DNA of 64,000 nucleotides, taken from assembly GCF_044704955.1 (NCBI RefSeq), contig NC_091983.1, positions 12,958,001 through 13,022,000 on the forward strand. The letters are read 5' to 3'. Positions 20,101 to 44,410 of the stretch are shown in pieces. Within the stretch, counting starts at the first letter, position 1. Every line of letters starts with the position of its first letter. The notes below the pieces were generated by a model. The model searched no databases, was not told the origin of the DNA, and saw nothing but the letters and a program-made list of their open reading frames with translations. Source of the stretch: Pristiophorus japonicus. Its lineage: Eukaryota. The position numbers and the translations under genes were made by a program.

Positions 20101-20990
20101 GTCTTTACTAACCTTTTTCTCTTTACATATCTATAGAAACTTTTGCAGTCTGTCTTAATGTTCCCTGCGAGCTTCCTCTCGTACTCTATTTTCCCTGCCC
20201 TAATCAAACCCTTTGTCCTCCTCTGCCGAGTTCTAAATTTCTCCCAGTCCCCAAGTTCACTGCTATTTCTGGCCAATTTGTATGCCACTTCCTTGGCTTT
20301 AATACTATCCCTGATTTCCCTTGATAGCCACGGTTGAGCCATCTTCCCTTTTTTATTTTTACGCCAGACAGGGATGTACAATTGGTGTAGTTCATCCACG
20401 CGGTCTCTAAATGTCTGCCATTGCCCATCCACTGTCAACCCCTTAAGTATCATTCGCCAATCTATCCTAGCCAATTCACGCCTCATACCTTCAAAGTTAC
20501 CCTTCTTTAAGTTCTGGACCATGGTCTCTGAATTAACTGTTTCATTCTCCATCCTAATGTAGAATTCCACCATATTATGGTCACTCTGCCCCAAGGGGCC
20601 TTGCACAACGAGATTACTAATTAATCCTCTCTCATTACACAGCACCCAGTCTAAGATGGCCTCCCCCCTAGTTGGTTCCTCGACATATTGGTCTAGAAAA
20701 CCATCCCTTATGCACTCCAGGAAATCCTCCTCCACCGTATTGCTTCCAGTTTGGTTAGCCCAATCTATGTGCATATTAAAGTCACCCATGATAACTGCTG
20801 CACCTTTATTGCATGCATCCCTAATTTCCTGTTTGACGCAGCCCTGCTTGACCCCGGTCCAGACATGGATTAGGTCTGTGGTGGATCCATTGGTTATGAT
20901 CACGGCTTGCGTGTCGTCGTAGAGCAGGCGGAGGATGGTGACAAACTTTTGGAGGCATCTGAAATGGAGGACGACACTCCATAGTCCCTC
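17182..20990 (-). mobile_element. RTE-clade LINE fragment split by a nested CR1 (18300-20832)
   Basis: RTE-type peptide LFNLHRLQARSKT..VVELQYADD at 17794-18237. TGVKQGCV at ~20835-20860 joins PTLF at ~18290 across the CR1. Confidence 0.8.
18300..20832 (-). mobile_element. 5'-truncated CR1 LINE (end of endonuclease plus RT)
   Basis: Motifs IMGDFN, SDHN, KSPGPD, QGSVLGP and FADD, with a typical tail; frameshifted. Confidence 0.92.
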
Positions 20991-22054
20991 TCAACCACAG
21001 GAATTATGAATTGGGAGTGGATTACAACACCAGGGAGTAGTGGGTAGTCTAGACTCCGGCCATGGTTTGGGAATAGAATGTGTAACGTGTACCTACCCAA
21101 CATTCTGTGCTGTGCTGGTCATGTAGCAGTCAAGGGTTTGGGCAATCTTTATTTTTCTTTTGGCTGTAGTTTTCAGAGATCAAGTCTCGCTGCACTATCG
21201 TAGCTTTCAATCTGGTATCTTTAAAATAAATTGAGATTATTCAAGAGAGCAATGAAAACTTGTAATCTATTGAGTTACACATCGAGTTCCATACAATCTC
21301 CATTGCAGTTATTTCCCCGAATGCTTCCCACCCTAAATGTGACAAAAATATAAGTTTTGTCCGAGTAAGACTTGTATAATTGAAATATTATAGCAACTCA
21401 TTCAAAACTCAAGATTAAAGTTGGTGAATTATAAGCAAATTCCTTTCAATTAGGAATTAGTTAAGATTAAGTGTGAATTGAATTGTATCCTATAGAGACG
21501 GAACACTGTTGGAAGCTTGAATCTCAGATAATGTGTATTTAACTTCTCATTGCCATTCTATGGGATCATTTTTGTGTTATTACGTAAAATGTTCCAAATG
21601 TCTGATTGTTCCTATTGTCACTCTTGATTGACAACCCTGTCTTCAAATGAAATGCAAGACACTCAAGTTGTACCAAACCGCTATAATAAAGTCAGCACTG
21701 GGAGCACCTTCAACACAAGTACTGCAGGCAGTTCACCACCACCTTCTCAAGGGCAACTAGGGAAGGGCAATAAATGCTGAGCTTGCCAGCGACACCCACA
21801 TCCCATGAACTAATATGTAAAATGTTTCAATAGTCGGTCCTAGCCCATTGAAGCAGAATTAGATGTTTGGAAATGAATTGAATTTTGAGAGTCTTAGATA
21901 GTTCATGAGATGCAGCTTTTGAGGTGAGATATTACACAAGATTTCTTACTGCTTATTTAGGAACAATATTCATCCGATTCCCAACTGTTCTGTTCCCAGA
22001 AACCCAAAGAAATGCTGAAAGCACGTATGCTGTACTGATGCAGTAGGAAAAAAA

Positions 22055-23593
22055 ACATAGAAAATAGGTGCAGGAGTAGGCCATTCGGCCCTTCTAGCCT
22101 GCACCGCCATTCAATCAGTTCATGGCTGAACATGCAACTTCAGTATCCCATTCCTGCTTTCTCACCATATCCCTTGATCCCCTTAGTAGTAAGGACTACA
22201 TCTAACTCTTTTTTGAATATATTTAGTGAATTGGCCTCAATAACTTTGTGGTAGAGAATTCCACAGGTTCACCACTCTCTGGGTGAAGAAGTTCCTCCTC
22301 ATCTCGGTCCTAAATGGCTTACCCCTTATCCTTAGACTGTGACCCCTGGTTCTGGACTTCCCCAACATTGGGAACATTCTTCCTGCATCTAACCTGTCTA
22401 AACCCATCAGAATTTTAAACGTTTCTATAAGGTCCCCTCTCATTCTTCTGAACTCCAGTGAATACAAGCCCAGTTGATCCAGTCTTTCTTGATAGGTCAG
22501 TCCCGCCATCCCGGGAATTAGTCTGGTGAACCTTCGCTACACTCCCTCAATAGCAAGAATGTCCTTCCTCAGGTTAGGAGACCAAAACTGTACACAATAC
22601 TCCAGGTGTGGCCTCACCAAGGCCCTGTACAACTGTAGCAACACCTCCCTGCCCCTGTACTCAAATCCCCTCGCTATGAAGGCCAACATGCCATTTGCTT
22701 TCTTAACCGCCTGCTGTACCTGCATGCCAACCTTCAATGACTGATGTACCATGACACCCAGGTCTCTTTGCACCTCCCCTTTTCCTAATCTGTCACCATT
22801 CAGATAATAGTCTGTCTCTCTGTTTTTACCACCAAAGTGGATAACCTCACATTTATCCCACATTATACTTCATCTGCCATGCATTTGCCCACTCACCTAA
22901 CCTATCCAAGTTGCTCTGCAGCCTCATAGCATCCTCCTCGCAGCTCACACTGCCACCCAACTTAGTGTCATCCGCAAATTTGGAGATACTACATTTAATC
23001 CCCTCGTCTAAATCATTAATGTACAATGTAAACAGCTGGGGCCCCAGCACAGAACCTTGCGGTACCCGACTAGTCACTGCCTGCCATTCTGAAAAGTACC
23101 CATTTACTCCTACTCTTTGCTTCCTGTCTGACAACCAGTTCTCAATCCATGTCAGCACACTACCCCCAATCCCATGTGCTTTAACTTTGCACATTAATCT
23201 TTTGTGTGGGACCTTGTCGAAAGCATTCTGAAAGTCCAAATATACCACATCAACTGGTTCTCCCTTGTCCACTCTACTGGAAACATCCTCAAAAAATTCT
23301 AGAAGATTTGTCAAGCATGATTTCCCTTTCACAAATCCATGTTGACTTGGACCTATCATGTCACCTCTTTCCAAATGTGCTATGACATCCTTAATAATTG
23401 ATTCCATCATCTTACCCACCACCGATATCAGGCTTACCGGTCTATAATTCCCTGTTTTCTCTCTCCCTCCTTTTTTAAAAAGTGGGGTTACATTGGCTAC
23501 CCTCCACTTGATAGGAACTGATCCAGAGTCAATGGAATGTTGGAAAATGACTGTCAATGCATCCGCCAATTCCAAGGCCACCTCCTTTAGTAC
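22055..23593 (-). mobile_element. 5'-truncated CR1 LINE
   Basis: ORFs 22853..23581, 22537..22863 and 22237..22509 are CR1 RT; tail at ~22055. Confidence 0.92.
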
Positions 23594-24419
23594 TGTAGTT
23601 GCACACAGTTGCCTGTCAAGTAATAGATGACTCGTTTAAAAGTTTTTCCACATGTCGCCTCTGGTTCTTTTGCCAATCACCTTAAATCTGTGCCCTCTGG
23701 TTATCAACCCTTCAGCCATTTGAAAGTTTCACTTTATTTACTCTATCTAAACCCTTCATGATTTTAAACACCTGTATCAAATCTCTTAGCTTTAAGGAGA
23801 GCAACCCTAGCTTCTCTAATCTGTCCACATAACTGAAGTCTCTCATCCTTCGAACCATTCTAGTAAATCTCTGTGCCCTCTCCAAAAACTTCATGTCCTT
23901 CATAAAATGTGGTGCCCAGAATTGGACACAACCAGCTAGAGCTGAACTAATGTTTTATATAGGATTAGCATAACTTCCTGGATTTTATTCTCTTGTGCTT
24001 CTATTTATAAAGCCCAGGATCCCTAAATACTTGAGAAAAAATTGCAGGGATATGGGGAAAGAGTGGAGGAGTGAGACAAACTGCTCTTCGAAAGAGCCAG
24101 CGCAGATTCGATGGGCTGAATGGCCTTCTTCTGTGCTGCACTATTCAATGGTTCAGCTACTATCCAGGTGTGAAAAGTGGGCAGTTCACACCTATCTAAA
24201 AATAACTATTATTTTTATATATATGTTGTCTTATTGGTATTGATTGCACTTCCACAGGTACGTCCCACTCTTGCTACTCCTGGCTCCACAGGTATATGTG
24301 CTTTAAGAATTAACTTGACTTTAGTTGGCGGCAGCGGAAGAATCCTGAGTAGAGGCAGCCCCAACGCCTGTCCGGCTCCATCAGCGACTAATTTCTGAAT
24401 GGAGTCCTTCAATAGTGTG

Positions 24420-25469: not shown

Positions 25470-26236
25470 GATAGGAACAGGAGGCGGCCATTGAGCCCCT
25501 CGAGCATGTTCCACTATACAATGAGATCATGGCTGCTCTGCGACCTAACTCCATGTACTCGCCTTTGGCCCATATCCCTCAATACCTTTGGTAAACAAAA
25601 ATCTATCAATCTCAAATTTAAGATCAACAATTGATTTATCATCAATTGGCAATTGCAGCAGAGAGTTCCAAACCTCTACCACCCTGTATGTGTAGAAGCG
25701 TTTCCTAATTTCACTCCTGAAAGGTCTGGCTCTAATTTTTTTTTCTAATTCCCCTATTCCATAGACTCCCCAACCAGCAGAAATAGTTTCTCTCTATCTA
25801 TCCTATCTGTTCCCCTTAATATCTTGAAAACTTTGATCAAATCACCCTTAATCTTTTAATCTTAATCTTAATAATTCCGGGGAAAGGAACCTTAATTTGT
25901 GTAATCTCGCCTCGCAATTTAATCCTTAGAGTCTGGTTATCATTCTGGTAAATCTACGCGGCACTCCCTCAAGGTCAATATATCCTTCCTCAGGTGTAGT
26001 GCTCAAAACTGCTCCAGATGTGGTCTAACTAGGGTTTTGTATAGTTGCAGCTCAACTTCTAGTATTCTAGTTCTCTAGATATAAAGCCAGCATTCCATTA
26101 GCCTTTTTGATTATTTTCTGTACATGTTTGACATTTTAATATTCTATGTACCTGGACCTCCAAGCCTTATTTGGACCACCACTGATTTTAACTTTTCACT
26201 ATTTAGAAAGTACCCTGTTCTATCCTTTTTAGGTCC
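25470..26236 (-). mobile_element. older CR1 LINE 3' fragment flanking the provirus 5' LTR
   Basis: CR1 tail at ~25470 and degenerate RT C-terminal sequence running up to the TSD. Confidence 0.7.
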
Positions 26237-26711
26237 TGCAAGATTGATTATCAAAGATGTTATCTGGCTATTATGAAGGCCCTGAGCTCGCTAAACAAAA
26301 AGGTATGCTTAAAACTATACATACGCATAGAGCCACAAGATGACCACTCGTTGAAGGTATGCTTAAAATTGCACGTACACAAGATGACCACTCATTGACC
26401 TCGGGCTCAAGGGAGCAATATAACACTATAAGGCGAGTGACACTGGGAAGAAGGGAACACATGGGTATTTGATCATGCGTTGGTACAGCCAATCACATCA
26501 CTGTTAAGATCTGTCCACGAGGACACCCATGTGCTAAACCCTGTATAATTAAAGTGCAATTTGAACAGCTCGTTGGAGATCCTCTCTCAGGCGGCTGAGA
26601 AGTGAGATGCTCCCCCTTCGCGTGTTGGAATTAAAGTCATTGAAACTTATCCAAGGTATCAGTCTGTTGAATCCGGGCTTGTTGAGAGGAGAAGGGCGAT
26701 TCTCCCCATCA
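26237..26711 (+). mobile_element. 5' LTR of the ERV (475 bp)
   Basis: TGCAAG...CCCCATCA. CCAAT at ~26489, TATAA at ~26544, ATTAAA at ~26630. An internal duplication in U3 is absent from the 3' LTR. Confidence 0.93.
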
Positions 26712-26713
26712 AC

Positions 26714-26731
26714 TGGCGTAGTCGACAGGAT
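26714..26731 (+). promoter_or_regulatory. primer binding site, tRNA-Ser
   Basis: TGGCGTAGTCGACAGGAT, 2 nt after the LTR. It matches the complement of the vertebrate tRNA-Ser 3' end (TGGCGTAGTCGGCAGGAT, as recalled) at 17/18. Confidence 0.85.
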
Positions 26732-26753: not shown

Positions 26754-26770
26754 ATGTGGCAGCTGTTGGG
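26754..26770 (+). CDS. env: env leader exon (MWQLL-G) upstream of gag, followed by the major splice donor
   Basis: ATG TGG CAG CTG TTG GG|GTGAGT. Splicing to 35752 yields the signal peptide MWQLLGTLVLVGGILG. Confidence 0.7.
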
Positions 26771-27013
26771 GTGAGTACTTTTTAAATACAAGTTAGAGCT
26801 GTTACACTGTTTATGGGAAAGGAGGAAATCTGTAGAAAGAACAAAAACGAGCCACGGAGAGGACGGAGATCAAGGAATAAGGACGACTTGGGGTATATGA
26901 TCGTCTCTAACGCGGTCAACCGGGGCGCTAATGAACAAGTATCGTCCAGGAGATGCGATGGAGGTACAAGAGTAGCCCACTAAGGGAAAGGTAGCCTCTT
27001 AGCGATCTTAGAA

Positions 27014-28605
27014 ATGGCCGGCGAATATAATTGGGGCCCCCGAGGGATCTATAGCGAAAATACTAGCAGATAAAACATGAAACTAATTGAGGGAATGAAG
27101 AAAAAGGGATGGCAACCAGACGACCCACCGGAGAAGCAGGCAAAGTGGTGGGAGTGCCAGCTGAGAAATAAAGGGGACCGGGCTCATATGGTAGTATTAG
27201 CCTGCTATCGGGAACAAAATAAAGAGATGGAAAGAAAGGATCAGATAATACAGGAATTAAAAGCTAAAATAAAAAAGATGGAAGTGGCGGAAGCAAGGAA
27301 TGGTACAACATGTGCAGCAGTAACTGGGCGACCTACAGCACCACCTACACTGGTACCAATATATCCCCCACTGGAACTTTTAAGTGAAGAAATCCAGAAT
27401 AGTGGGGGACCAGAGTGGGATGAGTTGGCTAATGAGGCTCGCAAATATACTCCAGACTATGACGATTGGGGAAGAGAAGGTGGGCCTCCCCCATACGAGA
27501 AGGTATGGGCAGCCCCGATCAAGGTACAATCTGTAACCGGCCACCCAACTACACCGGCTGCCGGAGGCAACCCGGGAGCCCCCACAATACCTGCCATGGC
27601 ACCTCGGATAAAAACTACCGATGTGTCACTGACACCCGGGGACACATTGAAGTTATTACAAATGTTACCCAAGTTAGAGAGGAGACGAAGTACTTAAGAG
27701 TTTTGGCAGAAAATACGGGAAATAAGAATCTACCACAGCCTTCACAACCGAGATGTGGAAGCGTTAGTAAGAGCAAAAATGACTGAAGAAATGCGGCAAC
27801 AGTTGGGACAACGATAAAGGGACGGCACTTGGTGTGCGATGATAGCCCCCACTGTTGCGCAGTCGGGGGCAGATTATTAGGCGTTTAAAGCAGACATAAC
27901 TCGGGTAGCAGGAGCAATACCCATAAACTGGGGAATAATCATGGGGGTCACTCAAAACAAGGGGGAATCCGCACATGACTATGCAGAGTGGAAATGATTG
28001 AGCTTCCAAACGTATTTGGGAAATATTGAACTCCACCAGGGATAATCAAGCATTCCTAAAAATATACAAAGACGGCTTGAGTACTGCACACCAAGACTTA
28101 TTAAAAGCAGGGCTAGTTACAATGAAAAACTATGACGTCTTGTCCAGATGGGCATCTGAGTTGGATGTTACTCAGAAAAGGAAAGTAGCTGTGGTAGAAG
28201 CGCACGTGGCCGCAGTGGCGAAAGGAACGAGTGAGGAAGGAAAACTATGCGCAGCCCCCTTGACTTGTTTTAATTGTGGAAAAGGCCACTTTAGTAGAGT
28301 GCCAGCAGAAAAAAGGGGCTCAAGGGAGGGATGGACAATCAAGGCCGAAGTGCCAGAACTGCGACAAACTAGGCCATACAGCGAGGAAATGCTGGGTTAA
28401 GGGGGGGGGGGGGGGGCGGGGGGAGGGGCAGAAGGACAGGGACCCGGACAGATTAGGAGTCCCAGGAGGAGAATCAACCCTGACCAGGGGAGAAGTGGTA
28501 GCGCTCCTTAAAGCAGCTCAGCGGCTTCCGTGGCCATTCCCCCCGCAAGAGAGGCTTTCTAACGAGGACATCATAAGTATGCTACGGTTGGCAGCCACTC
28601 AATAG
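27014..28605 (+). pseudogene. gag: ERV gag (frameshifted)
   Basis: PTAP (27332), YPPL (27362) and PPPY (27485). Zinc knuckles CFNCGK.GH (~28265) and CQNCDKLGHTARKC (~28351). Ends at TAG 28603-28605. Confidence 0.85.
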
Positions 28606-29685
28606 CGGTTACCGGCCCCCAGTGAAAATGTGGGACCACAAAGAGAGGATCCAAGAATGTTTATTGGCGCAGTGTTAGGGGGCCGGTAGTGCGAGATTCT
28701 GATAGACACGGGCGTGTCAATATCTATAACTAATCTAGACTTACCCCTTACCAAGGAAACGATCAGCATACAAGGAGTGGGAGGAGGTAACAGAAAGGCA
28801 ACTTTAAGTGAAATTGTACTATTGGAAGTGTTATATATGCAGACTATAGATATACTCTGTGTAGTCACTGTATAGTTGCATAAGATGGAGACTTGTTACC
28901 TGATGTACTATCAAATAAGGTTTACACTGTGTATATACTATGCTGGCACCACTAGAGGGTGCAACTTGTGGAAACCAGGGTTTCCTGCTTCTGTGGCAGA
29001 GGCTGCCCACCAAAGGGCACTGCGGTGGGAGACCTGAGGGTCACCTGCATAAGTGTGCAGGGGCCCAGTATAAAAGGCTGCCCATCATGCTTGTGCCTCA
29101 CTTTGGAGTTACGAATAAAGGACCAAGGTCACTACACTTTGAGTACAACACATTGCCTCGTGGAGACATTCATAAGTGCATTACAGACATAACAGGAAGT
29201 ACAAGGGATAGCACTACCCACCCAGTTTTGGTGCTGCCCCAATCCCAAAGGCACTATATTAGGAATAGAAACATTAAGGGAAATAGGGGTATTAATAGAC
29301 CCCCAGCGTAACCGAGTAGTCTGGGGAGAAGCAGCACGAAACTCAGTGTAAATTTAACCACCTGGGCCATCAGCAGCAGCAGGTGGCTGGGATCCGTCCA
29401 ATAGATCCCGAGTGAGAAAGAAAGGGTGCCTGAGGAAGTATGTGTCAGTGATACCCTGCCTTATGGGCCCAACACAAACAGGACTGTGGGTTGGTAGGGC
29501 CCAAGTCAGTCAAGATCCCAGGTCCAGAACACAAAGCCCACCTGCAATACCCACTGAAGCCAGACGCTGAAGCAACTGTCCTTCAGATAGTGAAAGAATT
29601 GGAAAGCAAGGGGTGGTGAGACAAACAATAGCTATGACTGACCAGTATGGCCAGTAAAGAAACCAGATGCCTCATATTGGCTGAC
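28606..29685 (+). pseudogene. pol: ERV protease and RT N-terminus (interrupted by a solo LTR)
   Basis: ILIDTGVSISIT (DTG at 28705) and IQGVGG. After removing the LTR the frame continues EVQGIALPTQFW..GTILGIETL. RT start reads LWAQHKQDCG..QYPL..PVWPVKKPD. Confidence 0.85.
28829..29194 (+). mobile_element. Gypsy-type solo LTR inserted in the ERV protease
   Basis: TGTTAT...ATAACA inverted termini, TSD GGAAG (28824-28828 and 29195-29199), TATAAAA and AATAAA present. Confidence 0.9.
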
Positions 29686-32600
29686 TGGGAGCAATCCTGT
29701 GCTATGTGGGAAATTGGGTATGTGTGCAGGAAGTGTATCCAGCTGCAGCTCTTGACAGACTGCATTGCAGCACTGGAGCTGCGCATGGATTCACTCTGGA
29801 GCATCCGCAATGCTGAGGATGTCACGAATAGCATGTTTAGTGAGTAGGTAAAGGTTACACAGGCAGATAGGGAATGGGTGATCATCGGGAAGAGCAGTGG
29901 AAGGAAGATAGTGCAGGGGGCCCCTGCGGTAATCTCCCTCCAAAACAGATATACCACCTTGGGTCCTGTTGGGGAAGATGGCTCATCAGGGGAGGGTAGC
30001 AGCAGCCAAGTTCATGGCACCAGGGGTGGCTCTGCTGTGCAGGAGGGCAGTGGACGAGCTATTGTGGTTGGGGCATTCTATTGTAAGGGGAATAGAGGGG
30101 CGTTTCTGCAGCCGCAAACAAGACTCCAGGATGGTATGTTGCCTCTCTGGTGCAAGGGTCAAGGATGTCTCGGAGCGGCTGCAGGACATTCTGGAGGGGG
30201 AGGGTGAACAGCCAGTTGTGGTGGTGCATATAGGTACCAACAATATAGGTAAAAAGCAGGATAAGGTCCTACAAACTGAATTTAGGGAGCAAGGAGTTAA
30301 ATTAAAAGGTAGGACCTCAAAAAGGTAGTAATCTCAGGATTGCTACCAGTGCCACGTGCCAGTCAGAGTAGAAATAGTAGGATAGTTAGGAATGAATACA
30401 TGGCTTGAGAAATGGTGCAAAAGGGAGGGATTCAAATTCCTGGGACATTGGAACCGTTTCTGAGAGGTGGGACCAGTACAAACTGGACGGTCTGCACCTG
30501 GGCAGAACTGGAACCGGTGTCCTAGGAGGAGTGTTTGCTAGTGTTGTTGGGGAGGATTTAAACTAATAGGGCAGGGGGACAGAGGGAAGAAAAAATGGGG
30601 TCAGAAGCTAAAGGTATAAAGGAGAAAAGTAGAAGTGGAGGGCAGAAAAATCAAAGACAAAAATCAAAAAAGGCCACATTACAACATAATTCCAGAAGGA
30701 CAAAGAGTGTTAAAAAGCAAGCCTGAAGGCTCCGAGTCTTAATGCGAGGAGCATTCGTAATAAGGTGGATGAAGGCGTTAACGGATATGATGTAATTGGG
30801 ATTACGGAGACATGGCTCCAGGGTGACCAAGGCTGGGAACTCAACATCCAAGGGCATTCAATATTCAGGAAAGATAAGACTGAAAGGAAAAGGGGTAGCG
30901 TTGCTGGTTAAAGAGGAGATTAACACCATAGTAAGGAAGTACATTAGCGTGGATGAGGTGGAATCTGTATGGGTACAGCTGCGGAACACCAAAGGGCAGA
31001 AAACGCTAGGGAGTTGTGTACAGACCACCAAACAATCATAGTGAGGTTGGGGATGGCATCAAATAAGAAATTAGGGATCTGTGCAATAAAGGTGCCGCAG
31101 TTATCATGGGTGACTTTAATCTACATATAGATTGGGCTAAACAAACTGGTAGCAATACGGTGGAGGAGGATTTCCTGGAGTGTATAAGGGATGGTTTTCT
31201 AGACCAATATGTCGAGGAACCAACTAGAGAGCTGGCCATCCTAGACTGGGTGTTGTGTAATGAGAGGATTAATTAACAATCTTGTTATGCGAGGCCCCTT
31301 GGGGAAGAGTGACCATAATATGGTAGAATTCTTCATTAAGATGGAGAGTGACAGTCAATTCAGAGACTAGAGTCCTGAACTTAAAGGAGGGTAACTTTGA
31401 AGGTATGAGGCTTAAATTAGCTAGGATTGAGCGGCAAATGATACTTAAGGGGTTGACTGTAGATGGGCAATGGCAGACATTTAGAGACCGCATGGATGAA
31501 CTACAACAATTGTACATTCCTGTCTGTCGTAAAAATAAAAAAGGGAAGGTGGATCAACCGTGGCTATCAAGGGAAATCAGGGATAGTATTAAAGCCAAGG
31601 AAGTGGCATACAAATTGGCCAGAAATAGCAGTGAACCTGGGGACTGGGAGAAATTTAGAACTCAGCAGAGGACAAAGGGTTTGATTAGGGCAGGGAAAAT
31701 TGAGTACGAGAAGAAGCTTGCAGGGAACATTAAGACGGATTGCAAAAGTTTCTATAGATATATAAAGAGAAAAAGGTTAGTAAAGACAAACTTAGGTCCC
31801 CTGCAGTCAGAATCAGGGGAAGTCATAACGGGGAACAAAGAAATGGCGGACCAATTGAACAAGTACTTTGGTTCGGTATTCACTAAGGAGGACACTAACA
31901 ACCTTCTGGATATAAGAGGGGTCAGAGGGTCTAGTAAGGAGGAACTGAGGGAAATCCTTATTAGTCGGGAAATTGTGTTGGGGAAATTAATGGGATTGAA
32001 GGCCGATAAATCCCCAGGGCCTGATGGACTGCATCCCAGAGTACTTAAGGAGGTGGCCTTGGAAATAGCGGATGCATTGACAGTCATTTTCCAACATTCC
32101 ATTGACTCTGGATCAGTTCCTATCGAGTGGAGGGTAGCCAATGTAACCCCACTTTTAAAAAAAGGAGGGAGAGAAAACAGGGAATTATAGACCGGTAAGC
32201 CTGACATCGGTAGTGGGTAAGATGATGGAATCAATTATTAAGGATGTCATAGCAGCGCATTTGGAAAGAGGTGACATGATAGGTCCAAGTCAACATGGAT
32301 TTGTGAAAGGGAAATCATGCTTGACAAATCTTCTAGAATTTTTTGAGGATGTTTCCAGTAGAGTGGACAAGGGAGAACCAGTTGATGTGGTATATTTGGA
32401 CTTTCAGAAGGCTTTCAACAAGGTCCTACACAGAAGATTAATGTGCAAAGTTAAAGCACATGAGATTGGGGTTAGTGTGCTGACATGGATTGAGAACTGG
32501 TTGTCAGACAGGAAGCAAAGAGTAGGAGTGAATGGGTACTTTTCAGAATGGCAGGCGGTGACTAGTGGGGTACCGCAAGGTTCTGTGCTGGGGCCCCAGC

Positions 32601-33578
32601 TGTTTACACTGTACATTAATGATTTAGACGAGGGGATTAAATATAGTATCTCCAAATTTGCGGATGACACTAAGTTAGGTGGCAGTGTGAGCTGCGAGGA
32701 GAATGCTATGAGGCTGCAGAGCGACTTGGATATGTTAGGTGAGTGGGCAAATGCATGAAGTATAATGTGGATAAATGTGAGGTTATCCACTTTGGTGGTA
32801 AAAACAGAGAGACAGACTATTATCTGAATGGTGACAGATTAGGAAAAGGGGAGGTGCAACGAGACCTGGGTGTCATGGTACATCAGTCATTGAAGGTTGG
32901 CATGCAGGTACAGCAGGCAGTTAAGAAAGCAAATGGCATGTTGGCCTTCATAGCGAGGGGATTTGAGTATAGGGGCAGGGAGGTGTTGCTACAGTTGTAC
33001 AGGGCCTTGGTGAGGCCACACCTGGAGTATTGTGTACAGTTTTGGTCTCCTAACTTGAGGAAGGACATTCTTGCTATTGAGGGAGTGCAGCGAAGGTTCA
33101 CCAGACTGATTCCCGGGATGGCGGGACTGACCTATCAAGAAAGACTGGATCAACTGGGCTTGTATTCACTGGAGTTCAGAAGAATGAGAGGGGACCTTAT
33201 AGAAACGTTTAAAATTCTGATGGGTTTAGACAGGTTAGATGCAGGAAGAATGTTCCCAATGTTGGGGAAGTCCAGATCCAGGGGTCACAGTCTAAGGATA
33301 AGGGGTAAGCCATTTAGGACCGAGATGAGGAGGAACTTCTTCACCCAGAGTGGTGAACCTGTGGAATTCTCTACCACAGAACGTTGTTGAGGCCAATTCA
33401 CTAAATATATTCAAAAAAGAGTTAGATGTAGTCCTTATTACTAAGGGAATCAAGGGGTATGGTGAGAAAGCAGGAATGGGGCACTGAAGTTGCATGTTCA
33501 GCCATGAACTCATTGAATGGCGGTGCAGGCTAGAAGGGCCGAATGGCCTACTCCTGCACCTATTTTCTATGTTTCTAT
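29686..33578 (+). mobile_element. near full-length CR1 LINE (ORF1 zinc-finger/SGNH esterase, ORF2 EN+RT), degenerate, nested in the ERV pol
   Basis: ORF1: CAMWE..YVCRKC, CLSGARVKDV, VHIGTNNI and DGLHL. ORF2: LNARSI, ITETWL, GDFN, SDHN, QGSVLGP and FADD. Tail TTCTATGTTTCTAT. Confidence 0.92.
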
Positions 33579-33636
33579 ATATATATATATAAAAAAAATA
33601 CACACACACACACACACACGTGTGTGTGTGTCTATA
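33575..33636. repeat. compound microsatellite (TA)n-A-run-(CA)n-(TG)n
   Basis: Read directly from the sequence. Confidence 0.85.
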
Positions 33637-34627
33637 TAGGCAATGGCAGACATTTAAAGATCACATGGATGAACTTCAACAATTGTACATCCCTGTCTGG
33701 AGTAAAAATAAAACAGGGTAGGTGGCTCAACTGTGGCTTCCAAGGGAAATTAGGGATAGTGTTAAATCCAAGGATGAGGCATATAAAGTGGCCAAAAAAG
33801 CAGCAAACCTGAGGACTGGGAGAAATGTAGAATTCATCAGAGGAGGACAAAAGGTTTAATTATGAAGGGGAAAATAGAATATGAGTGTAAGCTTGCAGGG
33901 AACATAAAAACTGACTGCAAAAGCTTTATAGATATGTGAAGAGAAAAAAGATTAGTGAAGACAAATGTGGGTCCCTTACAGTCAGAATGAGGCAAATTTA
34001 TAATGGGGAACAAAGAAATGGCAGACCAAATGAACAAATACTTTGGTTCGGTCTTCACTAAGGAAGACACAAATAATCTACCGGAAATACTAGGGGACCG
34101 AGGGTCTTAGCGAGAAGGAGGAACTAAAGGAAATCCTTATTAATCGGCAAATTGTGTTAGGAAAATTGATGGGATTGAAGGCCGATAAATCCCCAGGGCC
34201 CGACAGTCTGCATCCCAGAGTACTTAAGGAAGTGGCGTTAGAAATAGTGGATGCATTGGTGGTAATTTTCTAACATTCTATAGACTCTAGATCAGTTCAT
34301 ATGGATTGGAGGGTAGCTAATATAACTCCACTTTTTAAAGAAAGGAGAGAGAAAACATGGAATTATAGACCGGTCAGCCTGACATCGGTGGTGGGAAAAT
34401 GTTGGAATCAATTATTAAAGATGTAATAGCAGCACATTTGGAAAGCAGTGACAGGATCGGTCCAAGTCAGCCTGGATTTTTGAAAGGGAAATCATGCTTG
34501 ACAAATCTTCTAGAATTTTTTTAGGACGTAACTAGTAGAGTGGACAAGGGGGAGCCAGTGGATGTGGTGTATTTAGACTTTCAAAAGGCTTTTGACAAGG
34601 TCCCACACAAGAGATTAGTGTGCAAAT
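33637..34627 (+). mobile_element. internal CR1 ORF2 fragment (no 3' tail) fused to the ERV integrase region
   Basis: Runs from GQWQTF to [17 protein letters not shown], then switches abruptly to retroviral sequence. Confidence 0.88.
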
Positions 34628-35703
34628 GGTGGGACAGGGAGCTAAACAAGGCGTGGACAGAATCTGGAGGAAAGATTGTAATGTGGTAGCCCCAGAGTGC
34701 ATATGACAAAGCCTACTGAGTATATACCACGGGTATGCGCATACAGGTAAGACCAGCATGACGAGTTCAATATCCCAATGCCAGTGGTGGAAGGGAATGG
34801 GAAGAGATACAAATAATTATTGTAGGAAGTGCTTAACATGTGCAAAGCATAACCCAGGTGGAAAAAGAAAAGGTCAGAATGGGACACCAACCCTGACCAA
34901 AAGGACCATGGGAAAATCTGCAGATAAGACTTCACGGGCCCACTGCCCAATCACCAGGGAAAAACATGTTGTTTGGTTATAATAGATCAATTCACAAAAT
35001 GGGTAGAAGCTTTCGCAACTAGAAATTGCTCAGCTGAGACGGTGACTCGAATATTAGAAGAAATTATACCTCGGTGGGGAATGCCCCTACAGATAGATTC
35101 AGATCAGGGTACACACTTCACGGGTAAAGTAATGAAACAAGCATGCGCCCTTACTGGGAATCAGGCAGAAATTCCATATCCCCCATCATCCGGATTAGTA
35201 GAACGACGAATAGGACCCTGAAGAACGCACTGGCTAAGGTGATCGACGAGACATGAAAGGGATGGGTAGATATGCTGCCCCAGATTTTAATGAAGTTAAG
35301 GGCGACCCCAAACCGGACCACCAGACTCTCACCTTTCAAGCTAATGACAGGAAGGGCAATGAGATTACCTGAGGTTCTAGTGACGGGGAGTGATGATGTC
35401 AGACCCTACTGGGACCGAGTAAGGAGATTTGTGATGGAATTATGTAAACAATTACATGATCTGAAGGCACACGCCAGGGATCAGCAAGTGATCAAGGACT
35501 TGGAAACTGGCACCAAGGAACAAAAGGCTCAGATACCACAGGTTGGGAGCAAGGTAATGATAAAAATAATCCTCGAAAAGCCAGGATTTTCACCAAAATG
35601 GACAGGCCCTCACCAGGTAATAATGGTAAGCGACACGTGCGCGTGCGTGGCGATAGGTGGAACCGGACGGTGAAAACATTGGACACAGTTGAGTGCAACA
35701 TGA
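34628..35703 (+). pseudogene. pol: ERV integrase (HHCC zinc finger, DDE core, GPY/F-like C-terminus), frameshifted
   Basis: YHGYAHTG...CRKCLTC; IIDQFTKWVEAF; IDSDQGTHFT; SSGLVER; LRATPNRTTRLSPF; PKWTGPHQV. Confidence 0.9.
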
Positions 35704-35751
35704 GACCCTAACTAACCAGTGACGACCGGGAAAACATGTTGTGTTTTACAG

Positions 35752-37930
35752 AACCTTAGTCCTAGTAGGAGGAATACTGGGTAACCCCATCTTATACCAC
35801 GACCCAGCAGTAAGTTGCCCAGACGGCTATCAAGGAAATATTTCCACTACAAACTCAATCTTTTGCAGAAAATGCCAAAGGAACAAAAGGCTCAGATACC
35901 ACATGTTGGGAGCAAGGTAATGGTAAAAATAAACCTCAAAAAGCCAGGATTCTCACCAAAATGGACAGGCCCTCACGAGGTAATAATGGTAAGCGACACG
36001 TGCGCGTGCATGGCGATAGGTGGAACCGGACGGTGGAAACGACTTGAAGTGGAATGGACAAGCCCGGATAAGGGACACTCATGGCAGAACCAATCATAGA
36101 CATGCATGAAAAGCTCGGACCAAGGAAATCCACACAGGTGTGGGGGGGGTAAGATGTAACTTCACCAGAGAGGCAGAGGGGACTACCCCCATAACCATCA
36201 GGGAATCACAATACGGTAACGGTTCCTTATGGGGAATGTTCGTGTGCAAGATAGAGATCCCAACCACCACAATAGCCTCAACCACAACGACCCCAGAACC
36301 CCCAGGATGCCCAAACATGACACAGGGGGCAAGCGGAGGACTAGTAATAAAAAGAACTAAAGACAAAATCCACTTCGGGGTACGCCAAAGGGGTAGTGTT
36401 AAACCTAACGGATATAACTATCCCACTGTTTTGCGTTAAGAAAACTATAAGCTTATATAAAAATCCTAAGAGCCCTTGAGGGGCCTGAATCCAAGACCAT
36501 GAAGTTCAATGTAAAAAAGCCGAACAAAAGCGGGAAAGGCGGGAGTAGAGGGGATTATTGGAAATGGTGGGCGCGGGATATGCGGCGGGCGTTGCGACGG
36601 TTAAAATAATAAATCTTCAAACAATAGAAGAGCAGGTCATCACCCTCACACAGACCTTAAAAGGACTGCTGGAAATGGGAGATGATAACGAGAAAATGCA
36701 GGCCCAGCTAGGGGACGGGCTGGAACGGGAACTGCTACAGGTTGCCCATACATTATTGCAGGACCATGCAAAAACAATAAATTTGGTCAACCAGGCTGGA
36801 CAAACTATGAGTAAAAGAATGGCGGCCGAGATATTGTGTGGGATATGGGGCTTGGATGCTCAATACGGTAGAACATAACCTAGAACAACTCCAGAATGGG
36901 GAGGTGCCGGATTGGATAACCAATGATGTATTTGCTGAAAGGACAGTGGGCAAGAATGACACCCAAACCTGTGAGGTCCAGAGGATTAGCCATGCCTGGG
37001 TCCCTAAGAACAGGTGTGTAACTGGACATCAGAATATAATAGGGTTTGTGTTATCAATACCACAATACGACATGACAAAGGGAAACACATTGTACCAAGT
37101 AAGCAATATAGGAGAAATAAGGAATCAGAACCGTGTGCGATATCACAAATTGCACCAGTACGTAATTAAAAAGGGAAACAATACCAAAGGTGTCTATATT
37201 AAAGATTGTTATAAGAATAATCAAGTTGTTTTATGCCAAGAGCACCCAGACCTCGATAACAACGACTGTGGATATGGCCAAACAGAAGGATGTGCATTGA
37301 GTGTCACAACGCTGACACTGGACTCCGAAACGACCGCAGCCTCACAAGGAAAGGGAGGATGGTGTGTGAGCATCATGGCGGTCAATATGACGGTGGGGGG
37401 AGTTACCCACTGTCCTATCATGACCACCGACTTCTGTTTTGTGCCAAAAGAAGTCGTCGATATTGAGATATATCATATATCCGGAATTGAAAGGAGAATC
37501 CGTCAATGGGACTGCGGTGGACACTATCAAGGTATAAAGATTTCGAGGAACCACAAGGACGACATATACCCAGACTTAGTGAAGAACAAACTAAGTTGGA
37601 ACAGGACATCCATGAACAACGGCAGAAGTACATCATCCTGAAGATGGACAACTCCAGAAGGACACTAAAGAAATGTTGTCAAACCAACCCTGGTATGCGA
37701 GACTTTGGAACTTTGGACTAAACGTGCAGGTGTACCCCTGGATAAAAATAATATCCCATGTATTGGTGATTGTGCAATGTGTGATTTTAATGGTATTGTT
37801 GATTGAATTATGGTGATGTAGTAAACGACGGGCGAGGAAAGGCATAGCTCAGGCCCCCATAAAAGCCTTAGAAGAAACTAAACCTTTATTATCTGAGGAA
37901 AAATCTGTAAAACAGGTAAATGGTGTGTAA
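35752..37930 (+). pseudogene. env: ERV env, F-protein-like class I fusion glycoprotein (degenerate)
   Basis: Branch point CTAACTAAC (35708) and acceptor TTTTACAG (35751). Basic cleavage site RERRE*R then GLLEMVGAGYAAGVATV (36552). Heptad-like segment, Cys-rich region, W-rich segment PWYARLWNFG, TM IISHVLVIVQCVILMVLLI (~37750-37805), and tail EETKPLL ending TAA 37930. Confidence 0.8.
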
Positions 37931-38074: not shown

Positions 38075-38085
38075 AAAAGGGGGGA
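38075..38085 (+). promoter_or_regulatory. polypurine tract of the ERV
   Basis: AAAAGGGGGGA, 1 nt before the 3' LTR. Confidence 0.85.
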
Positions 38086-38086
38086 T

Positions 38087-38483
38087 TGCAAGAACAAGAT
38101 TGATCATCAAAGATGTTATCTGGCTATTATGGAGGCCCTGAGCTGGCTAAACAAAAGATATGCTTAAAACTGCACATACACAAGTTGATCTCGGGCTCAA
38201 GGGAGCAATATAACACGAGCAACACTTGGAAGAAGGGAACAAATGGGTATTTGATCATGTGTTGGTACAACCAATCACGTCACTGTTAAGGTCTGTCCAC
38301 GAGGACACCCATGTGCTAAACCCTGTATAAAATTGAACAGCTCGTTGGAGATCCTCTCTCAGGCTGCTGAGAAGTGAGATGCTCCCCCTTCACGTGTTGG
38401 AATTAAAGTCATTGAAACTTATCCAAGGTATCAGTCTGTTGAATCCAGGCTTGTTGAGAGGAGAAGGGCGATTCTCCCAATCA
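38087..38483 (+). mobile_element. 3' LTR of the ERV (397 bp)
   Basis: Colinear with the 5' LTR, with about 10 substitutions in the last ~255 aligned bp by hand count, plus indels. Confidence 0.93.
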
Positions 38484-39989
38484 GGTCCACTTCCAAAATA
38501 ACAAAGCACTATTTTCATTCATTTGTTTCAATTTACTTCAGTTATCTCTCTGGTCATAAAATGATTCATAGTGCAGCCTGAAATATATGGTGAGTCAGTG
38601 TGGTGTTGACCTGTCTATCATGGAATGCAGTAATAAGCTTCCTGTGCTGTTTCTAGAAACATGGGAACAGCAGTGGGCCATTCAGCCCTTAAAATCTGTT
38701 CCGCCATTTACTTAGATCATGGCTAATTTGTACCTCAACTCCATTTACCCACTATAAACCAGTAGATTGTTAGTGGAGACGTGCTACATATATATATAAA
38801 AAATAAATTTCGATTCATAACCACCACAACCAGCTTCCTATGGGAGCTGCCTTTGGCCGTGAGCACAAGGGTGGAAGACTGTCAAATTGTTGCATACTAA
38901 ATCCATAAGTGGATGGTCACAGTCTCACTGAATCCACATCAATACGCTAATTGAGCAAACAGCTATGAGAAAGTACAAAGCTTTCATTATGCACCAGTCG
39001 TTCAATTCAAGAGCAAGAAAACATTTCTATAATCAGCACATCCAAAGGAAACAAACATGGTCAGTAGCTCAGCTCTTTCAAATCATCAGATCTGATAAAG
39101 AACCCAGCAACCTGTACCTGCTTATCCAGTGAGCCACAAGTTGACATCCAATTGCCAGAACCAATTAGACAAATACATAAGTAAATAAAACAATTAAAAA
39201 TCAGAGATTTGAAAAAATCTTTTACACTGGGGAATCGTTACAACCTGGAATTCTCGGCCACGTTGTCCGTAAACACATTTAAAAGGGAATTTGTTGTTTG
39301 ATAAAGGACGTGGTGAGTATTGTGGGATTAGACTAGGTGGCTCATGGAGAGTAACATCAGTGCAGACTTATAAAGGGTTGAGTCACCTATTTCTGTGCTG
39401 CAACATTCCATGATTCTGAAACTCATAATATGCACACCACATTTTTTAGTTCTTACTGAAAAATATTTACTTCCCCAGGATTTATAAAAAATAATTAATT
39501 TCACCCAATTTTCCAGCTTTTAAAAAAAAGTGTTCCATTATTCTCTGAACAAACCTTTAAAACAAGAAACTCTGGATTTGCATTTAAATGCTGCTGGCAC
39601 CTCAAAAACAATCTCTGTCTGTCCTGCCTTCTGATCAGCCAAACAGCAATATACACTACACCGAGAATGAACACTGAACTTTTGCACAAAACTTTTCTTA
39701 ACTCTGCATCTGCATTACATTTTTCCCCCTCCACTTTACACTGAACATTGATTATTCCCCCAGTTTTCACCACTCTGAACAATCTATAATAAACCACGCA
39801 AAAGTCCCAGCACTTGTTTCCCAACCATAAACACCCCACTGTAGCATCGGTCAAAAGATTATGGGGCACAACTGGGAATTTTATTTTGGCAATTCAATGA
39901 TAAAGGAATTGTTTTAGGGCGAATTCACACTGTGACTGGCATTAGTGCAAAACAGTCTTCCACAAACCCTTCAGTTGTATACGCACTCT

Positions 39990-41615: not shown

Positions 41616-43814
41616 TTACACAAACGAATTGGTGCTTTCTGGATTGACGCGAATGATCCGGGATCCATTGCGGAGATCCTGGAGTTGTTTGGCCGGCGTT
41701 CCAACTCCTTCCTCGAACCGTCTCTCCACCACGGGGAGGACAGTCTCGTACAGGAAGGAAACGTTCTCGCGAATGAAGACTTTCTTCTCCGGGTCCTGCT
41801 CGCAGCGCAGGCTGTAGTCGACGTGCTGCACGGCCACCAGGATGATCTCGCGGAGGCTCTCCAGAAGGACCATGTGCAGTTCGGGGAAGTAGAGCTTCAG
41901 CCCTTCCTCCAAGAAGGCCATCAGCTGCTTGGTGAAGGCCACGATGGTGTAGCTGAGGTTGACCCAGCAGTCGTCGCCCGTGTACTGATCAAAATTCGTG
42001 ATGCCGCTGCCCTTCATCTCCTCCTTCAGCTTCGCCAAGGCCTCGGGCGTCATCAGGTTCATCTTCCTCCACATCTCCTCGGAGTTGCGGTGCTTGGTGG
42101 CCTCCACGATGATGCCCTTGTAGCTGTGGAGGGCGGCCTTGATGTCCTTGACCAGCAGGGCCTGGAGGGTGAAGGTGAGGTCCAGGCCGATCTCACTGAG
42201 CTTGCTGCAGTGCTCCTTGGCCACCTCCACGCACTCGGCTGTGGTGGACAGGCTCTCCTTGCTGTCGAACACCTGCTTGCTGAAGGCGTCGACGAAGAGG
42301 CGGGTGGCCGAGCGCGACCACACCACGAAGGCCGAGTAGCAGCCGCTGTCACCGGCGAAGTCCATCTCGAACTCCCTGGCCGTGTCCAGCAGGCCGGTGA
42401 AGAAGATGTTACAGAGCTTGTGGATGTAGAGCAAGGTGGCGCCCTCGATGCGCAGCTGGCGGATGGCTGTCTGCACGGCGGCCGCGCGGTTCTTCAGGAA
42501 GAGCTCGCAGGCCTTGGTCGACTGGCCGAGGCGGATGAGCTGCGAGACGGCGCGCCGGGTGGCCCGCGGGCCGCCGCGCAGCGAGCGGCCGGGCGACAGC
42601 TCGTAGACCAGCACGTCGGTGAGCCGGCGGACCCGCTGCTCCACCCGGCCGCGCAGCTGGCGCACCCCGGGCTGGCCGGCCGCCCCGCGCAGGTAGTCGG
42701 ACAGCTTGTCCAGCAGGTCGACCGCCCCTTCGAAGTCACGCTGGGCGATGCAGACGTCCAGGTCCTCGGGCAGCTCTTGGATCCACTCCAGGCTCAGGTC
42801 CACCAGCTCCAGGGCCGGGGGCTCCTCCTGCTCGTCGAACGGGTTGGCCTTGGACGACAGAGACGGCGGCGGCCGCGACTTCTTCGTCTTCTCCTCCTCC
42901 TCGGCCGCCAGCAGCAGCAGCAGGGCCTCGGCCTTCTCCACCTCCAGGCGCTCGGTCAGCGCCTTGGTCTTCTTGGTCTGGTCCAGGATCTCCAGCCACT
43001 CCTTCTTGACCTTGGCGTTCTCGGCCTGGAAGACCCGCGTGTCGGGGAACATGAGCACCTTGAACATGTCGCGCATGGGCCCGTTGTCCTTGACGTTGAC
43101 CACGGCGAAGCTGTCGAGGCGGTAGAGCGCGTCGTAGCGGTAGCGCACGGCGCCGCGGCGGCTGGGCAGCCAGGCGGCCACCAGCAGGCAGTCGTTCATC
43201 AGGAAGGCGTGCACCCGCTGCACCTGCGCCGCCGTCTCGGCGTCGCACTCCAGCAGGTCGCCGTTGTAGACCAGGTAGCGGCCGGGCGCCTGCAGCAGGT
43301 CCTGGCAGCCCTCCACTTTCTCCAGCAGGGTGGTGAGGGTGCGCTGCTTGTGCTCCTCGGCCTCCCGCGGCAGCAGCAGGAACGCCTCGGAGGAGGAGGA
43401 GGAGGTGGTGGTGGCGGTGGTGGTGCTGCCGCCGCCGCCGCCGGACGAGGAGGTCCCCTGCTGCAGCTGGCGGGAGCCCTGCTGCTGGAGCTGCTCCCGG
43501 TCGGCCGTCAGCAGCAGCTGGGTCAGGCCGTCCATGATGCCCTTCTGCTCGGTGAGGATGTGGCTGAGCTGGTACATCTCGCTCTCCAGGTAGCTGATCT
43601 CCCGCGCCGTCTCGATGAACTGCCGGTAGTTCTTGTAGACGTTCTTCTTCAGGTTCTGCGCCGTCTCGTCGGCCAGGCTCTGGATCTTGTGCCGGTGCTC
43701 CTGCAGGTCGCGGTCGCCGTCCGACTGCTGCGACAGCTGCTTGACGTACAGGCCCGGCTCGAAGCGCGGCGCCTCCAGCTGGCGCCGGAGCTTGGAGGCC
43801 CCGTCCGCCGCCAT
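41616..43814 (-). CDS. EXOC8: exocyst complex component 8 (Exo84), single exon, 732 aa
   Basis: LRRQLE..F....YVKQLSQQSDGDRDLQEHR, PH-like region GRYLVYNGDL, WIQELPEDLDVCIAQRDFEGAVDLL, and C-terminus RVNPESTNSFV. ATG at 43814. Intronless and head-to-head with SPRTN as in mammals. Confidence 0.98.
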   Translation of the reverse strand: MAADGASKLRRQLEAPRFEPGLYVKQLSQQSDGDRDLQEHRHKIQSLADETAQNLKKNVYKNYRQFIETAREISYLESEMYQLSHILTEQKGIMDGLTQLLLTADREQLQQQGSRQLQQGTSSSGGGGGSTTTATTTSSSSSEAFLLLPREAEEHKQRTLTTLLEKVEGCQDLLQAPGRYLVYNGDLLECDAETAAQVQRVHAFLMNDCLLVAAWLPSRRGAVRYRYDALYRLDSFAVVNVKDNGPMRDMFKVLMFPDTRVFQAENAKVKKEWLEILDQTKKTKALTERLEVEKAEALLLLLAAEEEEKTKKSRPPPSLSSKANPFDEQEEPPALELVDLSLEWIQELPEDLDVCIAQRDFEGAVDLLDKLSDYLRGAAGQPGVRQLRGRVEQRVRRLTDVLVYELSPGRSLRGGPRATRRAVSQLIRLGQSTKACELFLKNRAAAVQTAIRQLRIEGATLLYIHKLCNIFFTGLLDTAREFEMDFAGDSGCYSAFVVWSRSATRLFVDAFSKQVFDSKESLSTTAECVEVAKEHCSKLSEIGLDLTFTLQALLVKDIKAALHSYKGIIVEATKHRNSEEMWRKMNLMTPEALAKLKEEMKGSGITNFDQYTGDDCWVNLSYTIVAFTKQLMAFLEEGLKLYFPELHMVLLESLREIILVAVQHVDYSLRCEQDPEKKVFIRENVSFLYETVLPVVERRFEEGVGTPAKQLQDLRNGSRIIRVNPESTNSFV

Positions 43815-44410
43815 CACTAGCGCACGGGAAAGGGGGGCGGGTGGGTAGGTGAGGGTGAGACTCGAGTTAGGCCGCAGCCAGAGCTGGGCCTTGCTGCTGC
43901 TGCCGCCACTCGAGTTTCAAAGCGCGTCCAGGCCCAACCGTCCGTCACCCGCCCGCTCGCGCCGCCAACTGACAGCCGCTCGCGCGCCGCCCTGTTCTGC
44001 CCCGCGGCTTCCGATTGGCCAGCCAGCGGTGATTTCCAGCCCGCCCATTGGTCGGATCGTTTCTCCCCCCCCCCCACCCCACCACCACCCCCGGCTCTCC
44101 AACAGCTTCTGATTGGTCCGCTTGACGATATTTTTTGCAGCCCGAACCCATTGGTCGGATCGTTTCCCTGACCCTCTTCGGTAACTTCCGATTGGCCGGT
44201 GGACGATCTTCTCCAGTCCGTTTATTGGTCGGATTAGTTCCCCTTGCCCCCCCCCCCTTCCCTCCCATGGCTTCCGATTGGCCGGTCGGCGACGCTTTCC
44301 AGCCCCGCCCATTGGTTCACCCTTCCATCATGTGACCTGCGGCGGGGCGGGGACAAGGCAGTGAGGCGAACTGCGCATGCCCGTTGACAGTTGAAGCTGG
44401 GAGCCGGAGG
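43815..44410. promoter_or_regulatory. bidirectional CpG-island promoter EXOC8/SPRTN
   Basis: Eight ATTGG (reverse CCAAT) at 44014, 44047, 44112, 44150, 44191, 44224, 44277 and 44311. GC box at 44341-44352, NRF1-like TGCGCATGC at 44372, CHR-like TTTCAAA at 43915. Confidence 0.85.

Follow-up and report, generated by a model that had tools for sequence, protein, structure and literature searches.

A putative F-type envelope gene with an exchanged N-terminal head in a dead shark provirus

A 64,000-nucleotide stretch of the Pristiophorus japonicus genome (NC_091983.1, positions 12,958,001 to 13,022,000; hereafter the window) contains a whole provirus on the + strand, with long terminal repeats (LTRs), primer binding site (PBS), gag, protease, integrase (IN) and polypurine tract. 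Its envelope gene (env) is the subject of this analysis. The element is quite probably the dead provirus of a shark retrovirus that combined a polymerase (Pol) of snakehead retrovirus (SnRV) grade, outside lokiretroviruses (Loki), foamy, gamma- and epsilonretroviruses, with a class Ib, F-type Env bearing a head of its own. F-like retroviral Envs and SnRV-related shark endogenous retroviruses (ERVs) are each already in print, and the window copy is dead. No description of the two together was found in the open literature: a backbone of SnRV grade, not of Loki type, would here carry an F-type Env whose heads can be exchanged.

Fusion core, split gene and heads of Env

An initial annotation, made from the letters alone, described a paramyxo/pneumovirus F-like envelope from position 36330 onward, and every motif it listed was found in its place. 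The order is RERRE*R, GLLEMVGAGYAAGVATV from 36552, the heptad segment INLQTIEEQVITLTQTLKGLL, IIGFVLSIPQY..LYQVSNIG and a Cys block, followed downstream by a second heptad segment, a W-rich segment and a transmembrane segment that ends at 37811. The proposed ectodomain of about 400 codons agrees with the sister copy L010, in which fusion peptide and transmembrane segment are 400 codons apart. As also annotated, CX6CC and the immunosuppressive domain (ISD) motif, together with CX7CC, are absent from all three forward frames of 36501-37850; the gamma-type combination of ISD and CX6CC in a short transmembrane-subunit ectodomain is not present. The cleavage site was read only partly correctly. A frame break near 36546 falls on it, so that the first letters of RERRE are off-frame, but a predicted furin-type site is supported by the sister copies: of 23 distinct sequence contexts around it, 20 read R-x-[KR]-R. 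The family Env, about 660 residues long, has the whole class Ib series from the furin site through fusion peptide, heptad A, an ectodomain of about 400 residues and heptad B to the transmembrane segment.

The structure model was built for L010, not for the window copy, and the core of F domains I-III is recovered in it by structure at moderate model confidence. Similar scores in the fold searches went to the glycoproteins of lispiviruses, the F protein of baculoviruses and the Envs of foamy viruses and walleye epsilonretroviruses, with E 1.5e-5 for that of walleye epidermal hyperplasia virus. We take the Env of the window family to be an F-type fusogen of class Ib that carries its own head at the N-terminus; the paramyxo/pneumovirus label was right in type and too narrow in extent. 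Since baculovirus F scores like the other class Ib proteins, a match to it, which the annotation had named as refuting, does not discriminate. Several results weigh against this assignment. The L010 model has a mean predicted local distance difference test (pLDDT) score of 59 and a predicted TM-score of 0.42, its fusion peptide and heptad A lie under pLDDT 50, and the TM-scores of its fold matches are only 0.3-0.4. An earlier AlphaFold2 model (42 close copies, 663 residues) reached pLDDT 33 and was left out of the fold searches. Pfam PF00523 (Fusion_gly) matches the window env at E 0.017, below the cut-off, and the best match in the own genome, a copy of the window env family, scores 26.4 bits against a cut-off of 29.8; Loki Envs likewise stay below it. 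Neither the env fragment nor profile A2 nor the head profile A3 matched a PDB sequence at E below 0.09.

The gene begins earlier than the annotated 36330, with a predicted leader exon at 26754-26770 and an acceptor exon from 35752; neither the leader exon nor the head domain had been annotated. The ATG at 26754 and the GT donor, 17 nt apart, are both kept in 27 of 30 copies picked by similarity to the window stretch. The acceptor AG at 35751 is present in 14 of the 16 copies in which it was located (it was not located in 7 of 23), and the acceptor exon opens, in matching phase, with a hydrophobic stretch able to complete a signal peptide. The SnRV genome (L156) has a visible leader-exon env start with the same layout and the same splice phase, and the family shares with the SnRV clade an env start codon upstream of gag. 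Such a start is reportedly a hallmark of SnRV. Sequence and SnRV parallel together suggest that leader and acceptor would be joined by splicing. The head-B subfamily (L098, L100-L102), unlike head A, apparently has its own in-exon ATG and signal peptide in three of four copies.

Head A comprises about 110 residues with 8 Cys and is followed by a Thr/Pro stalk, before the fusion core. Subfamilies B and C share 65-70% core DNA identity with the window (B integrase 69%), but no head DNA similarity to the window is detectable in them, and similarity resumes at 36308-36326. Six heads are mutually unrelated in all 15 comparisons (C, E and F are known from one or two sequences); searches with head A and head B gave about 150 matches each. 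Heads were exchanged between subfamilies at the stalk/core border; the purpose of the exchange, we infer, may be a change of receptor. From its position, and by analogy with the modular scheme in PMC11468914, the head would be the receptor-binding part. For head A, the ESM Atlas gave a C-type lectin (0.83) as a lead only, Pfam and PDB gave no match, and the head has a pLDDT of about 25 in the earlier AlphaFold2 model. A lectin-like end motif is unevenly spread over the heads (11 of 13 A, 2 of 9 B, 0 of 8 D, 0 of 2 E), so that the lectin identity stays a lead. An immunoglobulin (Ig)-like head A found no support in ESM Atlas, Pfam or PDB. The Ig-like look of the heads in P0081, P0097, P0090, L053 and L087 was judged by eye and from one UniRef label, and the Pfam Ig domain has no match in them.

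Two lineages with other heads were also observed. The head-D lineage (L068-L082, L192) looks much younger, as most of the best 102 scored places are without a stop and several are identical; its Pol groups with the window family and its signal peptide is apparently unsplit. The head-E lineage (L083-L097, L193) carries a longer, Ig-looking head on a different Pol that groups with the turtle sequence P0025. Support for this grouping in the Shimodaira-Hasegawa-like approximate likelihood ratio test is 92 in the 26-row tree and 30 in the 25-row tree.

In the ancestral virus, env would be expressed from a spliced RNA in which the 17-nt coding leader upstream of gag is joined to the acceptor at the end of pol, as suggested by the SnRV layout. 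Furin would cleave the precursor ahead of the fusion peptide, to judge from the motif in the sister copies, and the core is predicted to fold as an F-like trimer. By analogy with F and foamy Env, fusion may proceed through refolding of heptads A and B into a six-helix bundle. The stalked head, exchanged between subfamilies as a unit, would bind the cell in place of the separate attachment protein of paramyxoviruses. The window copy itself can make none of these ancestral env products or functions.

Relationships of Pol and the origin of env

Since most of the reverse transcriptase (RT) is gone from the window, the RT of the collinear sister locus L027 (86-87% identical to the window) was used. 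References were gathered by motif scans and labelled by motif identity with rows of the PMC7947760 supplement: SnRV (10,688 nt), two Loki (L157, L158), 15 foamy viruses, all mammalian, and 18 gamma/delta/epsilon-type records. For the RT tree, 21 of 59 rows were dropped (near-duplicates, P0072); further trees had 24, 29, 26 and 25 rows. By identity and path, SnRV is the nearest named RT (43.7%, compared to 36-41% for gamma-type, 35-36% for Loki and 33-37% for foamy RTs). The RT tree joins the family to shark and minnow elements in a starred clade that lies apart from Loki, foamy viruses and class I. By these comparisons its Pol appears to be a canonical retroviral one, close to SnRV in grade and distinct from those of Loki, foamy viruses, gamma- and epsilonretroviruses. 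The loki/SnRV-type label of the initial annotation stands in its SnRV half, given the nearest named RT and the shared leader exon; its Loki half is not supported by RT motifs and tree tests. Gypsy-type rows have the lowest identities of the set (RT 27-34%, IN 25-30%). The family lies outside them in all trees, by which a Ty3/Gypsy errantivirus was rejected; IN clustering inside Gypsy, another refuting outcome named by the annotation, was not seen.

In approximately unbiased (AU) tests on RT plus tether, a clade of the family with Loki is rejected twice (p 0.006, 29 rows; p 0.019, 25 rows), while monophyly with SnRV is not rejected (p 0.13, and p 0.35 in a further test). The family RT motifs also differ from those of the 24 Loki rows compared from the PMC7947760 supplement, Loki Gag has no tblastn match in the window, and the reference Loki Env, about 560 residues long, lacks a head and has a signal peptide to itself. 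It is highly improbable, and largely refuted, that the element is a true lokiretrovirus and the first in a cartilaginous fish, even though the F-like Env with an RXKR site and the lean of Env and IN identities would fit and neither the RT-only nor the IN-only test rejects it. Loki and SnRV should be kept apart as two distinct lineages. The least probable reading is a foamy-like ERV. The foamy Env shares the F fold (PMC11468914), but a clade with foamy viruses is rejected for RT plus tether (p 0.015, 25 rows, in a tree without fish foamy-like RTs), and the CCHC knuckles, 5-bp target duplication and Ser primer site all argue against it. The family Env is also shorter (about 660 versus about 990 residues) and starts with its head, which foamy Env has as an insertion ahead of the cleavage site (same source). 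Other results speak against the SnRV-grade placement that we prefer. A family plus SnRV clade is recovered in no tree, RT alone does not reject family plus Loki (p 0.24, 24 rows), and the IN tree does not resolve the placement (AU test of family plus Loki p 0.23, tree without CGIN1). IN identity is 42-45% to Loki versus 35-38% to SnRV, Loki Env resembles the Env core much more closely than SnRV Env does, and the trees were built without ERV-L, ERV-S, CmiERV, Odin and fish foamy-like RTs.

Among 89 frames, the Env profile A4 matches the two Loki Envs at E 1.7e-18 and 1.3e-15, foamy Env at best at 1e-4 and SnRV Env at 9e-4. With hhalign, the family Env gives 98% for Loki, 71% for SnRV (280 columns) and 59% for foamy, with at most 0.3% for three shuffles. 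This gradient, the frog member P0097 that matches Loki Env at BLAST E 1e-13, and the lean of IN to Loki would be explained if the same virus, with the same fusion mechanism, had captured its F-type env from a lokiretrovirus by recombination into an SnRV-grade backbone. Published precedent exists for swapping Envs into backbones of class III (PMC8278194), and a capture would mean that the F-type env says nothing on the ancestral retroviral Env. We nevertheless regard it as rather unlikely. SnRV Env itself aligns over the 280 columns and may simply evolve faster, and the PMC7947760 supplement reports no Loki in the cartilaginous fishes screened. At least two separate Pol lineages carry this Env core, with head D in the one that includes the window family and head E in the one of the turtle sequence, and the core occurs in sharks, a skate and frogs, so that any capture must be old. 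Either the F-type Env is ancestral and SnRV Env diverged faster, or there was an old capture from Loki.

Loki, SnRV and foamy Envs do not detect one another directly; the family profile reaches all three and links them in sequence. Wang and Han (PMC9040795) preferred independent origins of Loki and canonical Envs because no Env similarity was detectable. The family, with a Pol that is not of Loki type and an Env profile that extends from Loki to, at lower strength, SnRV and foamy viruses, makes it possible to test by a tree where the Env of retroviruses originated. An F-type Env on a polymerase that is neither Loki nor foamy suggests that this type is older and more widespread than in the published account. 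As a tentative extension of the SnRV-grade reading, the ancestral Env of vertebrate retroviruses might have been F-type. Loki, foamy viruses, SnRV, walleye epsilonretroviruses and the shark/frog group would have retained it, and gamma and beta Envs would be later replacements. The shark/frog group might then change receptors by replacing the entire head, Ig-like in some lineages and perhaps of C-type-lectin type in the window family, while the fusion core stays constant. The swapped heads are a naturally occurring set of candidate modules for receptor binding, unrelated to each other but seated on a single fusion scaffold; a modular head scheme for class Ib proteins is predicted in outline in PMC11468914. 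A 2026 survey of chondrichthyan Envs (10.64898/2026.05.06.723177) required ISD plus CX6CC, by which an abundant F-type class would be filtered out.

Provirus layout, decay and distribution of the family

The features of the provirus are as follows.

26232-26236, no strand: target site duplication, 5 bp, left copy; identical 5-mer at 38484-38488
26237-26711, +: 5' LTR, 475 bp, TG...CA
26714-26731, +: PBS for tRNA-Ser(AGA), complementary to host tRNA-Ser
26754-26770, +: predicted env leader exon, ATG, five codons plus two bases; GT donor at 26771
27014-28602, +: gag, broken; N-terminal part coiled-coil-like, two CCHC knuckles (zf-CCHC E 0.001)
28639-29324, +: protease region, split by a 366-bp insertion at about 28830-29195
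29419-29686, +: remnant of the RT N-terminus (tblastn; 86% DNA identity with sister locus L027)
29687-34627, +: two long interspersed nuclear element (LINE) pieces; 86-87% direct repeats D2, D3, D9, D12
34635-35697, +: integrase, broken (rve E 2e-13, Integrase_H2C2 E 6e-12)
35752-36257, +: env acceptor exon, signal peptide remainder plus head type A, interrupted at 35882-36039
36260-36304, +: Thr/Pro-rich stalk (S/T/P 11 of 18 residues in L010)
36305-36548, +: F2-like N-terminal part of the fusion core; similarity between subfamilies resumes at 36308-36326
36549-36895, +: broken cleavage site, then fusion peptide (from 36552) and heptad repeat A
36896-37547, +: beta-rich, Cys-containing body, putative F domains III, I, II (Fusion_gly E 0.017; sister-copy model and fold searches)
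37548-37811, +: heptad repeat B, W-rich membrane-proximal region, transmembrane segment (tail about 8 residues in L010)
38075-38084, +: polypurine tract
38087-38483, +: 3' LTR, 397 bp, TG...CA
38484-38488, no strand: target site duplication, right copy

The window env has eight frame-breaking indels (near 36142, 36392, 36462, 36546, 36834, 37465, 37531 and 37650) and three in-frame stops (36097, 36546 and 37814), and the interruption at 35882-36039 is a duplicated integrase-end piece. Most of RT and RNase H is replaced by a near-full LINE plus a second LINE fragment, which we take to be CR1/L2-type. Divergence between the LTRs (Kimura two-parameter distance 0.053, 391 columns) corresponds to an insertion age of 12 million years at a mammalian rate or 121 million years at a tenfold lower shark rate, the latter an assumption in PMC4422223, so that only "old and dead" is safe for this copy. 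The PBS-complementary pattern lies inside host genes called tRNA-Ser in all four loci scanned, and the tRNA-Ser PBS is the commonest form (12 of 30 copies). On G000:C23, the tRNA-Ser 3'-end pattern occurs 1,022 times, often in tandem arrays of about 1.95 kb. The 366-bp insertion is not found in L027, and a few-base overlap suggests a target duplication. Outside the provirus, an inverted LINE copy (95-99% identical) is located at about 20000-23600. An intact single-exon host frame of 766 codons (41616-43916, - strand), presumably related to the exocyst subunit EXOC8, lies about 3 kb downstream of the 3' LTR.

In the own genome (5.9 Gb), at least 141 env matches were found (140 scored of 15,921 candidates), all but one with E below 1e-85, so that the env layout is not due to chance. 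When 1.84 billion proteins were searched with a profile, 32 matched; 17 were looked up, and the 16 named ones come from sharks, a skate and two frogs, which bears out the cartilaginous-fish host that the annotation had supposed. Word-indexed homologue searches yielded none of 5,713 candidates, and 2 of 7,999 when scored with profile A4. In IMG/VR, none of 10 pattern matches to the family RT was confirmed. An env frame that stays open for 786 codons (L053:1462-3819, - strand, G000:C18) also belongs to the F-type family. It is 45% identical to bamboo-shark P0081; the pol traces around it are weak (21-30% identity), and none of 70 matches is a close sister with an open frame. It is possibly a co-opted gene. 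Four predicted shark-type proteins (P0100, P0103, P0105, P0099), in which env pieces are fused to cadherin, F-box, V-set and Niban domains, are probably gene-model chimeras.

Comparison with known retroviruses and class Ib proteins

SnRV shares with the family the nearest named RT, the env ATG in a leader exon with the same phase, the acceptor at the end of pol, an in-frame gag-pol stop (seen in the sister lineage L192) and an Env that is weakly homologous over the F-like core (L156:6131-9535). The SnRV Env frame differs in that, of its 1134 codons, about 500 precede the core and 136 encode the tail. Weighing against a close SnRV relationship, the family has another PBS and an Env tail of about 8 residues, and the gap of about 260 bp between env and polypurine tract leaves no room for 3' accessory genes; the long Env tail and 3' accessory open reading frames given as SnRV features in PMC12193657 are thus absent.

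SnRV-related ERVs of cartilaginous fish are also represented by CmiERV lineage I of the elephant shark (PMC4422223) and clade Huo (PMC6001957), and the family may belong to the same broad group. The annotation had supposed that such elements are little described in this host group. The 2015 paper (PMC4422223) already reports them, but its available text does not describe their Env fold, and in the open literature, bioRxiv supplements and Repbase ERV4 apart, no SnRV-related or shark ERV was found for which an F-type Env is described. With ERV-S and XtERV-S, the family shares the tRNA-Ser primer site and the 5-bp target duplication, features of class III ERV-L/ERV-S in PMC8278194. XtERV-S differs in its gamma-type Env with ISD and CX6CC (same source).

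Loki elements (PMC7947760, PMC9040795) resemble the family in an F-type Env with an RXKR site, the best Env-core match and the IN identity. They differ from the family, whose RT lies outside their clade and whose Env has an additional head and stalk; the family further has a signal peptide that is predicted to be split by splicing and a CCHC Gag. Foamy Env and paramyxo/pneumovirus F, the former in print as F-like along with Loki Env (PMC7947760, PMC11468914), share the domain I-III core, heptads A and B and the long ectodomain after the fusion peptide. In contrast to paramyxoviruses, in which attachment is provided by a second protein, the family has its putative head on the same chain, at the N-terminal position that is coronavirus-like in the scheme of PMC11468914.
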